DNA of 63,446 bases, the filler included, from Thermoplasmatota archaeon (lineage in GTDB: Archaea > Thermoplasmatota > E2 > JACPAO01 > JAHFTW01): NCBI GenBank assembly GCA_041623215.1. It is 5 parts of 5 records of this genome, joined end to end, with 100 filler letters (N's around TTAATTAATTAA, not from the genome) between each part and the next. Parts side by side here need not be neighbours in the genome. Positions count along the whole stretch, not along the records: positions 51,814 to 63,446 come from JBFJXH010000052.1; 4 more parts are not named here. One strand, 5' to 3'. The position numbers were made by a program, and so were the translations under genes. Positions 51,714 through 52,769 of the stretch are shown here, one piece after another. How positions within the stretch are numbered: the stretch's first letter is position 1; every line of letters begins with the position of its first letter. The notes under the pieces were generated by a model. The model made no database searches and was not told the origin of the DNA. It saw only the letters and a list, made by a program, of their open reading frames with translations.

Positions 51714-51813
51714 NNNNNNNNNNNNNNNNNNNNNNNNNNNNNNNNNNNNNNNNNNNNTTAATTAATTAANNNNNNNNNNNNNNNNNNNNNNNNNNNNNNN
51801 NNNNNNNNNNNNN
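51714..51813. other. Artificial contig linker
   Basis: N-TTAATTAATTAA-N. Confidence 0.98.
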
Positions 51814-51972
51814 GGACGCGGAGGCCGAGGCGGACGCGGCGTAACCTGGGGCGACCGAGACGACCGTGGCGGCAGAGGCGGACGCGGAGGCCGAGGAGGC
51901 CGCGGCGGAACCTGGGGCGACCGAGACGACCGTGGCGGCAGAGGCGGACGCGGAGGCCGAGGCGGACGCGGC
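51814..51972 (+). repeat. 66-bp coding tandem repeat (22 aa, TWGDRDD-[RGG]5)
   Basis: AACCTGGGGCGACCGAGACGACCGTGGCGGCAGAGGCGGACGCGGAGGCCGAGG recurs at 51843 and 51909. The contig breaks inside the array. Confidence 0.9.
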
Positions 51973-52104
51973 GATGGCGGGCACCGCCAGGACAAGCCGC
52001 GCGGGCCGGGCGCCTTCCGACGCGACAATCAGCCGGCACGACCTCCGGGACGGGGCAACAAGAAGCCACGCAGTTCTGATTCCAGCGAGGGAGGATCGAC
52101 ATGA
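51814..52104 (+). CDS. RGG/GAR-repeat C-terminal tail of a 5'-truncated gene (probably Nop5, inferred from synteny)
   Basis: The only plus frame open from the contig edge: GRGGRGGRGVTWGDRDDRGGRGGRGGRGGRGGTWGDRDDRGGRGGRGGRGGRGDGG...EGGST*. Its TGA overlaps the fibrillarin ATG (ATGA). Confidence 0.8.
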   Translation, partial: GRGGRGGRGVTWGDRDDRGGRGGRGGRGGRGGTWGDRDDRGGRGGRGGRGGRGDGGHRQDKPRGPGAFRRDNQPARPPGRGNKKPRSSDSSEGGST

Positions 52105-52769
52105 AGCCCACGGGCCTCAATGGCGTGTTCTTTGACCGCGGGTTGAAGTGGACCCTGAACCGTGTCCCGGGCCGCAAGATCTACGGCGAGTTGCTACGCC
52201 TGCGCGGCGACGACGAATATCGCGCGTGGAATCCGGGCCGTAGCAAGATGGGTGCGCTCTCGGAAGTCCACCGGTCCCCACCCTGGCCGGGGCCCAAGGA
52301 CTCTGTGCTGTACCTTGGAGCGTCCTCGGGCACAACGGTCAGCCACATCAGCGACATCACGGACGGCACCATTTTCGCTGTTGAATTCAGCCCCCGTTCC
52401 GCGCGAGACCTCTTGTGGAACATGGAGCCCCGGGACAATGTCGTTCCCATCTTGGCAGACGCTGGGGAACCAGCATCGTATGCGTCGTACCTCGCAGACC
52501 ATGTGGATATCCTCATCCAAGACGTGGCCCAGCGCCACCAGGTGGACATTTTCCTGCGCAACATCCCGTTCTTGCGCCCCGGCGGGCACGGCTTCCTCTT
52601 CGTCAAAGGCCGGAGCATTAGTGTCAGCGAGCCACTGCATTCCATTTTCGAAGCAGTCCGGAAGCGCCTCAAGGAGGCCGGCCTCGAAATCGTGGTGGAC
52701 GAAGATTTAGCCCCGTTCGAAGCCGACCATAGGGCAATCGTTGTCCGCCGCCCGGGTGGGCGCGCGTGA
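52101..52769 (+). CDS. flpA: Fibrillarin-like rRNA/tRNA 2'-O-methyltransferase
   Basis: IYGE, YRAWNPGRSK, VLYLGASSGTTVSHISDI, AVEFSPR, NVVPILADA, QDVAQ, LAPFEADH. Confidence 0.96.
   Translation: MKPTGLNGVFFDRGLKWTLNRVPGRKIYGELLRLRGDDEYRAWNPGRSKMGALSEVHRSPPWPGPKDSVLYLGASSGTTVSHISDITDGTIFAVEFSPRSARDLLWNMEPRDNVVPILADAGEPASYASYLADHVDILIQDVAQRHQVDIFLRNIPFLRPGGHGFLFVKGRSISVSEPLHSIFEAVRKRLKEAGLEIVVDEDLAPFEADHRAIVVRRPGGRA

Follow-up and report, generated by a model that had tools for sequence, protein, structure and literature searches.

An RGG-repeat array beside an archaeal fibrillarin gene, read as the C-terminal tail of Nop5 in a long-tailed family of Thermoplasmatota

The locus described here begins at position 51814 of the window (the whole stretch of 63,446 nucleotides of Thermoplasmatota DNA that was analysed), which is also base 1 of contig C52; positions 51714..51813 are an N spacer with linker between the unrelated contigs C49 and C52, and the DNA to the left of it does not continue into the locus. 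From 51814 a plus-strand frame stays open until the TGA at 52102-52104, and its translation runs GRGGRGGRGV, TWGDRDD(RGG)5 and TWGDRDD(RGG)4RG, followed by a 42-residue end piece. This stretch (51814..52104) encodes the last 96 amino acids and the stop of what we read as nop5; another contig, C124, carries the Nop core and first repeats of this gene at its end. The TGA overlaps the fibrillarin ATG at 52101 (ATGA), and a GGAGG Shine-Dalgarno-like site lies within nop5 at 52090-52094, an arrangement (52090..52104, plus strand) that suggests translational coupling. Fibrillarin (FlpA) occupies 52101..52769 on the same strand, with 222 residues and a normal N-terminus without a GAR extension; it scored 217 bits against a cut-off of 113 with NF003276, also passed PF01269, and had its closest matches mostly in Thermoplasmatota. 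Its stop overlaps (GTGA) a membrane-protein gene (PF06695; 52766..53638, plus strand), and nothing links the product of this downstream gene to the box C/D particle. The other two plus frames run into stops at 51842 and 52077. The original prediction had described the open frame, its ATGA overlap with fibrillarin and both of these stops, and the translation returned each of them.

At the DNA level, the repeats form a tandem array (51814..51973, plus strand) with a period of 66 bp, 2.4 copies of the unit TWGDRDD(RGG)5 on C52, a 94% match and a TRF score of 299, the highest among the 32 rows of the window. A further 3.3 copies occur on C124, in line with the earlier idea that the array might be longer than its contig. 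The encoded pieces are dense in RGG, with 11 in the 96 residues from C52 and 16 in the 88 residues from C124; glycine and arginine account for about 60-68%, and lysine occurs 3 times in the 184 residues of both tail pieces together. Beyond the array, the tail carries a family-conserved terminal motif (51994..52050, plus strand). Two-copy repeats of 70-71 bp were also seen at other contig ends of this genome (G000:C7:1-136, C143:1-142 and C151:4215-4354), and these are probably assembly breaks.

The sole PF01798 match of the genome lies on C124 (E 3.7e-49; 167 bits against a cut-off of 25.4), in the 5' part of nop5 (locus L001, 3-1163, minus strand). There, no stop interrupts the nop5 frame before the contig end, and the Nop domain is followed in frame by a short first repeat, two full units and part of a third; the ends of C124 and C52 stand in one frame whatever the number of 66-bp units. 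The NF011121 profile gave 246 bits, below its cut-off of 452, with a match spanning profile positions 121-372 of 417; the cut-off is missed because the Nop5 head is short. As calculated from the contig bounds, the gene holds 3-5 full units and a tail of 139-183 amino acids with 18-27 RGG. The same break was found in the relative G018, in which the Nop core and the tail end lie on two contigs. Additionally, four runs were considered, all marine metagenomes of one study that possibly includes the source sample. Run X2 has a Nop5 contig of 860 bases whose last part is repeat, and a fibrillarin contig of 955 bases that opens with repeat. Their depths were similar at 6.75 and 6.32, those of the Nop5 and fibrillarin contigs in run X1 were 7.92 and 6.91, and the repeat pieces were 2.0-2.4 times deeper, comparisons that give a rough hint only. 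A contig bridging the repeat was found in none of the four runs; consequently, the join rests on the shared repeat, the frame, the gene order in relatives and the depth.

The nop5 gene is thus split by the assembler inside the 66-bp repeat. Judged from sequence, the RGG array almost certainly represents the C-terminal tail of the box C/D particle scaffold, Nop5. The original prediction had proposed a Nop5 tail with a Nop domain in the upstream frame, and both are borne out by the partner contig with PF01798, by the frame that runs into the same 66-bp repeat and by the X2 contigs. A DEAD-box or other upstream gene was also considered and rejected, as the partner contig is nop5 and the helicase-like RGG genes lie on other contigs with tracts that differ from the 66-bp unit. 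Other C/D partners are present in the genome, with fibrillarin adjacent to nop5 and an L7Ae-family match (E 1.6e-29). A scan for C/D guide RNAs gave 4 hits against 1-5 in five shuffles, which is not above chance. One candidate box C/D guide RNA (G000:C51:1409-1459, minus strand) has perfect C, D', C' and D boxes and is apparently intergenic; a target for it was not found within the assembly.

The array immediately precedes fibrillarin, with a shift of one frame between the two, and the original prediction had noted that a single frameshift would give the eukaryotic layout, with the RGG array on the fibrillarin N-terminus. This part of the prediction is not supported, since such a frameshift would fuse the whole of Nop5 to fibrillarin and would not yield a GAR-fibrillarin. 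No indel was present over 52070-52105 in any of the three runs whose contigs cover it (one study, possibly including the source sample), which speaks against a frameshift or indel at the junction. Furthermore, a nop5 stop with an overlapping or abutting separate fibrillarin start was found in 17/17 complete family loci, with a fusion in none, and the fibrillarin starts line up at Met1 over 23 sequences. With the array frame continuous with the Nop domain as well, it is exceedingly improbable that the array is a fibrillarin GAR domain cut off by a sequencing indel or joined by programmed frameshifting. In another family, f23, the Nop5 C-terminal domain and a fibrillarin without its N-terminal part share one open frame (L185:1495-2631, minus strand, genome G057), and the same junction sequence occurs at a contig start in G066 (L184:1-585); this frame is likely a natural Nop5-fibrillarin fusion.

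Across the phylum, 84 complete loci of 115 were used to measure tails, counted from 24 residues past a conserved motif, A-x-[RK]-x-D; left out were frames running off the locus end (G000, which is this genome, G003, G018 and G020), G065, the fusion L114, and the named records L031-L055, which are partly the same genes. All 17 complete genes of this genome's own family, f1, have tails of at least 65 amino acids (79-205, median 147; rich in G, R, P and K). Elsewhere in the phylum such tails were found in 2/67 loci, namely 2/30 with a GC content of at least 0.60 and 0/37 with a lower one, and the median tail is 13-30 amino acids. GC alone therefore does not explain the long tails, because GC-rich outsiders mostly lack them. 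A quick Nop-core tree separates f1 from the rest at one branch (SH-aLRT 99) and places the sister family f3 next to it (95); as the family members are kin, the 17/17 long tails count as one event. The tail sequences cannot be aligned within f1, and the 17 relatives carry 0-7 RGG per tail in differing repeats (GGKP, RGPPRD, RSFDG and others), so that the canonical RGG form sets this genome apart. The survey of Thermoplasmatota nop5-fibrillarin loci that had been suggested thus recovered long tails as a family trait and the canonical RGG pattern in this genome only. The RGG/Trp pattern emphasized originally is real here and was overstated, given these relatives and the RGG runs on other RNA-binding proteins. 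Two nop5 copies were observed among the contigs assigned to each of G022 (C15, C3) and G020 (C387, C131), and both G022 copies are long-tailed with the terminal motif.

Most family tails end in K-[RK]-x-P-G-A-F-R-x-D-N-x-P-A-x-P-P-G. A profile of this motif reached at least 15 bits in 48/60 family-like proteins (20/31 outside the training set), at most 19 residues from the C-terminus, and in 0/202 other Nop5 proteins and 0/620 shuffled tails. The motif is weak or missing in 12/60 family-like proteins, and the same-genus relative G001 had no match. This genome has one match only, and hits beyond the family, in 16 genomes, were all weak (E >= 0.007). The codons of the motif vary synonymously, which disfavours an RNA-level constraint as its origin.

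Synonymous variation is also found inside the repeat. The five RGG 9-mers in one unit have 8 differences from their consensus, all of them synonymous, with a simulated probability of 2e-4. The variation in Arg and Gly codons had originally been taken as a sign of selection on the peptide, and the variation itself is confirmed. The 66-bp units are, at the same time, 94-97% identical to one another at the DNA level, which implies that unit multiplication is recent, and this by itself gives no sign of selection.

Ten frames of the genome have at least 3 RGG within 20 amino acids; two are the Nop5 pieces, and the eight others include uS5 and Rrp41, identified by family matches. The uS5 protein (C8:8479-9444, L174) has an N-terminal extension with 10 RGG, and RGG/RGP extensions occur in 15/15 family loci: at least 2 RGG upstream of the core in 15/15 f1 loci and at most 1 in 15/15 other loci. 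Eukaryotic uS5 has an RGG N-terminus too. The exosome protein Rrp41 (C69:7245-8252, L145) ends in a 79-residue tail with 10 RGG; its distribution is patchy, with at least 3 RGG in 4/16 f1 loci and 0/14 others, and among the loci checked similar tails occur in genus g11 only. Five further tracts (G000:C6:20011-21825, C66:6569-7975, C103:416-4417, C20:11677-12333 and C39:9730-10632) lie on what we take, from visible motifs, to be two DEAD-box-like genes, one SF1-like helicase and two other genes, so that three of the RGG-bearing genes are presumably helicase-like. In the 88% complete genome, neither Gar1 (PF04410) nor the PRMT5 family (PF05185), which is one PRMT family among others, was found, and Cbf5 has no tail.

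These RG extensions are a habit of the lineage, and the Nop5 tail therefore need not be a particle-specific adaptation. Slippage in this high-GC lineage, with G/R/P tracts being added to the ends of many RNA-binding proteins, could have produced it as a near-neutral side effect that is tolerated; on this view nothing beyond the open frame and its coupling with fibrillarin would be maintained. Such a process would account for the near identity of the repeat units, for tails that range from 79 to 205 amino acids and cannot be aligned, and for the runs on uS5, helicase-like genes and, patchily, Rrp41. However, it does not readily explain why a long tail is kept in every complete family gene and mostly absent from equally GC-rich outsiders, or why the 9-mer variation is synonymous and the terminal motif is conserved at the protein level. 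Overall, we regard a neutral origin as fairly unlikely.

The long tail is accompanied by a short head. The median position of the conserved coiled-coil Trp is residue ~91 among the family-like proteins (n = 58), ~132 among the nearest outsiders (n = 55) and ~153 among distant representatives (n = 131); the N-terminal domain has ~55 amino acids against ~120 in known archaeal Nop5, the fibrillarin-docking head is ~40 amino acids shorter, and in the alignment the family head lacks an N-terminal hairpin segment. Residues 57-288 match 3id5_A (E 3.6e-52), covering the coiled coil and the Nop domain. An AF2 model of the full-length relative P0048 resembles 3pla_A (Z 25.4, rmsd 4.8, 285 aligned), with a core pLDDT mostly above 90, a head without strands and a tail pLDDT of 44-54. 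The tail is accordingly predicted to be disordered, as originally claimed. Three other Nop5 representatives (P0205, P0221 and P0263) nearly lack the N-terminal domain and have C-terminal low-complexity tails of 117-169 amino acids.

A short head and a conserved tail end raise the idea of a leash, in which the end motif would dock on fibrillarin or another assembly factor and offset the shrunken fibrillarin-binding head. The position of the coiled-coil Trp, the missing hairpin and the strandless model head fit this idea, and short head, long tail and motif occur together in one clade, next to a sister family with full head and short tails. Yet all three traits arose on one branch, so that their co-occurrence is a single observation, and the motif is absent or weak in a fifth of the family-like proteins. 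Moreover, according to the available text of PMC1865073, the Nop5 head shows little conservation among archaea, and its binding to fibrillarin depends mostly on shape, which means that a short head may suffice. The monomer model of P0048 did not show the motif folding back onto Nop5, and joint modelling of fibrillarin and the motif peptide (score 0.00) counts neither way. We therefore consider a leash very unlikely.

Long tails are not restricted to this family. Among 145 new Nop5 representatives, 135 were anchored and 23 had tails of at least 65 amino acids, one of them a family fragment, a number that is biased upward because the search profile included tail columns. Low-complexity R/G/K/D tails occur in Methanococcus maripaludis, a model archaeon (P0162, 111 amino acids) and in a Nitrosopumilaceae cluster (P0181, 91 amino acids), and the Thermoplasmatota representative P0141 has a tail of 180 amino acids with 8 RGG. 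Long basic tails in several archaeal lineages make the Nop5 end a recurrent site of low-complexity expansion. The P0141 tail is the same as that of L075 (G064, family f14), a separate R/G/F/E-repeat tail, where three relatives have tails of 41-53 amino acids; G064 was placed elsewhere than f1 in the Nop-core tree. In the two genomes of the sister family f3 that were covered, Nop5 has a full head and a short tail of 27 and 53 amino acids, and the fibrillarins of G026 and G028 (L177:1357-2115 and L178:1264-2127) have ~30 and ~64 extra N-terminal G/R/K/P-rich residues, as read in two genomes from inferred starts at a GGAGG-preceded ATGA overlap and with one RGG each.

The composition of the tail suggests another role, in which its main effect would be to make C/D particles condense at rRNA genes, in an RNA-dependent manner, into a small nucleolus-like body. 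The unit has a sticker-and-spacer make-up with 6 R, 3 D and 1 W, family tails hold up to 17 aromatic residues, and uS5, Rrp41 and the helicase-like proteins bear similar tracts. Nucleolus-like bodies containing Nop5 and fibrillarin are also reported for S. solfataricus in the available text of PMC9932318. Nevertheless, S. solfataricus Nop5 has no such long tail (412 amino acids in PDB 5jpq_S, presumed to be this protein from an identical alignment), Cbf5 of the present genome is tailless, unlike the yeast arrangement, and no imaging or biochemistry on the lineage was found in the literature searched. Condensation as the main role appears quite unlikely. A wider version is that proteins for building ribosomes and degrading RNA in this family (Nop5, uS5 and, in part of the family, Rrp41 and helicases) independently acquired GAR-like arms, which together with RNA would condense to form a nucleolus-like body, and that the nop5-fibrillarin junction illustrates how GAR domains can originate, with the tract on the Nop5 end in f1 and on the fibrillarin start in f3; we offer it as an unlikely, speculative extension.

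The reading that we favour, and find reasonably probable from the combined comparisons, is that the Nop5 tail would be a flexible arm that binds RNA and assists the particle in capturing pre-rRNA or guide RNA. A short basic archaeal tail, presumably ancestral, would have expanded once in the ancestor of f1. Its middle part may then have been turned over by slippage, with composition kept and sequence free, reaching the canonical RGG form in this genome. With Nop5 as a dimer, each particle would carry two arms, which may raise its residence on pre-rRNA. Such arms might do, by convergence, the job of the eukaryotic lysine-rich Nop56/58 tails and GAR domains.

Published work frames this reading in several ways. 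In yeast, the lysine-rich tails of Nop56/58 direct snoRNPs to pre-rRNA that is still being made, and efficient methylation and stress condensation depend on them, as described in the available sections of PMC11528048. Archaeal fibrillarin is described without a GAR domain in the accessible parts of PMC7194090 and PMC1865073, and published reviews, in their available text, present archaeal particles without such arms. An RG-rich HMM had no match in prokaryotic proteomes in the portion of PMC7608942 at hand, RG/GR tracts in bacteria are linked to RNA helicases in that of PMC11132505, and the available text of PMC11896706 contained nothing bearing on RG-rich tails. No description of RG-rich archaeal Nop5 tails was found in the literature searched, most subscription papers being outside its reach. 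Both this locus and the family around it run counter to the picture given in the reviews, so that the view of such regions as arising only with the nucleus needs qualifying. The tail is convergent and family-wide, and in this genome it reaches its most GAR-like extreme; it is neither a broken GAR-fibrillarin nor evidence of a nucleolus.

Compared with known systems, the protein shares with archaeal Nop5/aNOP56 (NF011121; PDB 3ID5, 3PLA, 3NMU, 2NNW and 1NT2) the coiled coil and Nop domain, the position of its gene directly upstream of fibrillarin and a basic C-terminal end, but differs in its tail of ~139-183 amino acids with 18-27 RGG, its terminal motif and its ~55-residue N-terminal domain. 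With the GAR domain of eukaryotic fibrillarin/Nop1 it has in common dense RGG with interspersed aromatics in a protein of the box C/D particle; however, it sits on the Nop5 C-terminus and not on the fibrillarin N-terminus, has Trp and Asp spacers, is lineage-limited and recent, and occurs in an 88% complete genome without a PRMT5-family match. It is the f3 fibrillarin extension that occupies the position of the eukaryotic GAR domain. Like the KKE/D tails of eukaryotic Nop56/Nop58, it is a basic C-terminal tail on a Nop scaffold, predicted here to be disordered, although it is rich in G, R and P (K in some relatives) and without lysine/glutamate doublets. The other archaeal long Nop5 tails (P0162, P0181 and P0141) have low-complexity R/G/K/D sequence at the same position; they lack the family terminal motif and mostly have a full-length head. 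Such Nop5 tails recur in several archaeal lineages and look convergent, not ancestral to the eukaryotic GAR domain; what the present family brings to this recurrent theme is a motif conserved at the tail end, together with a reduced fibrillarin-docking head.
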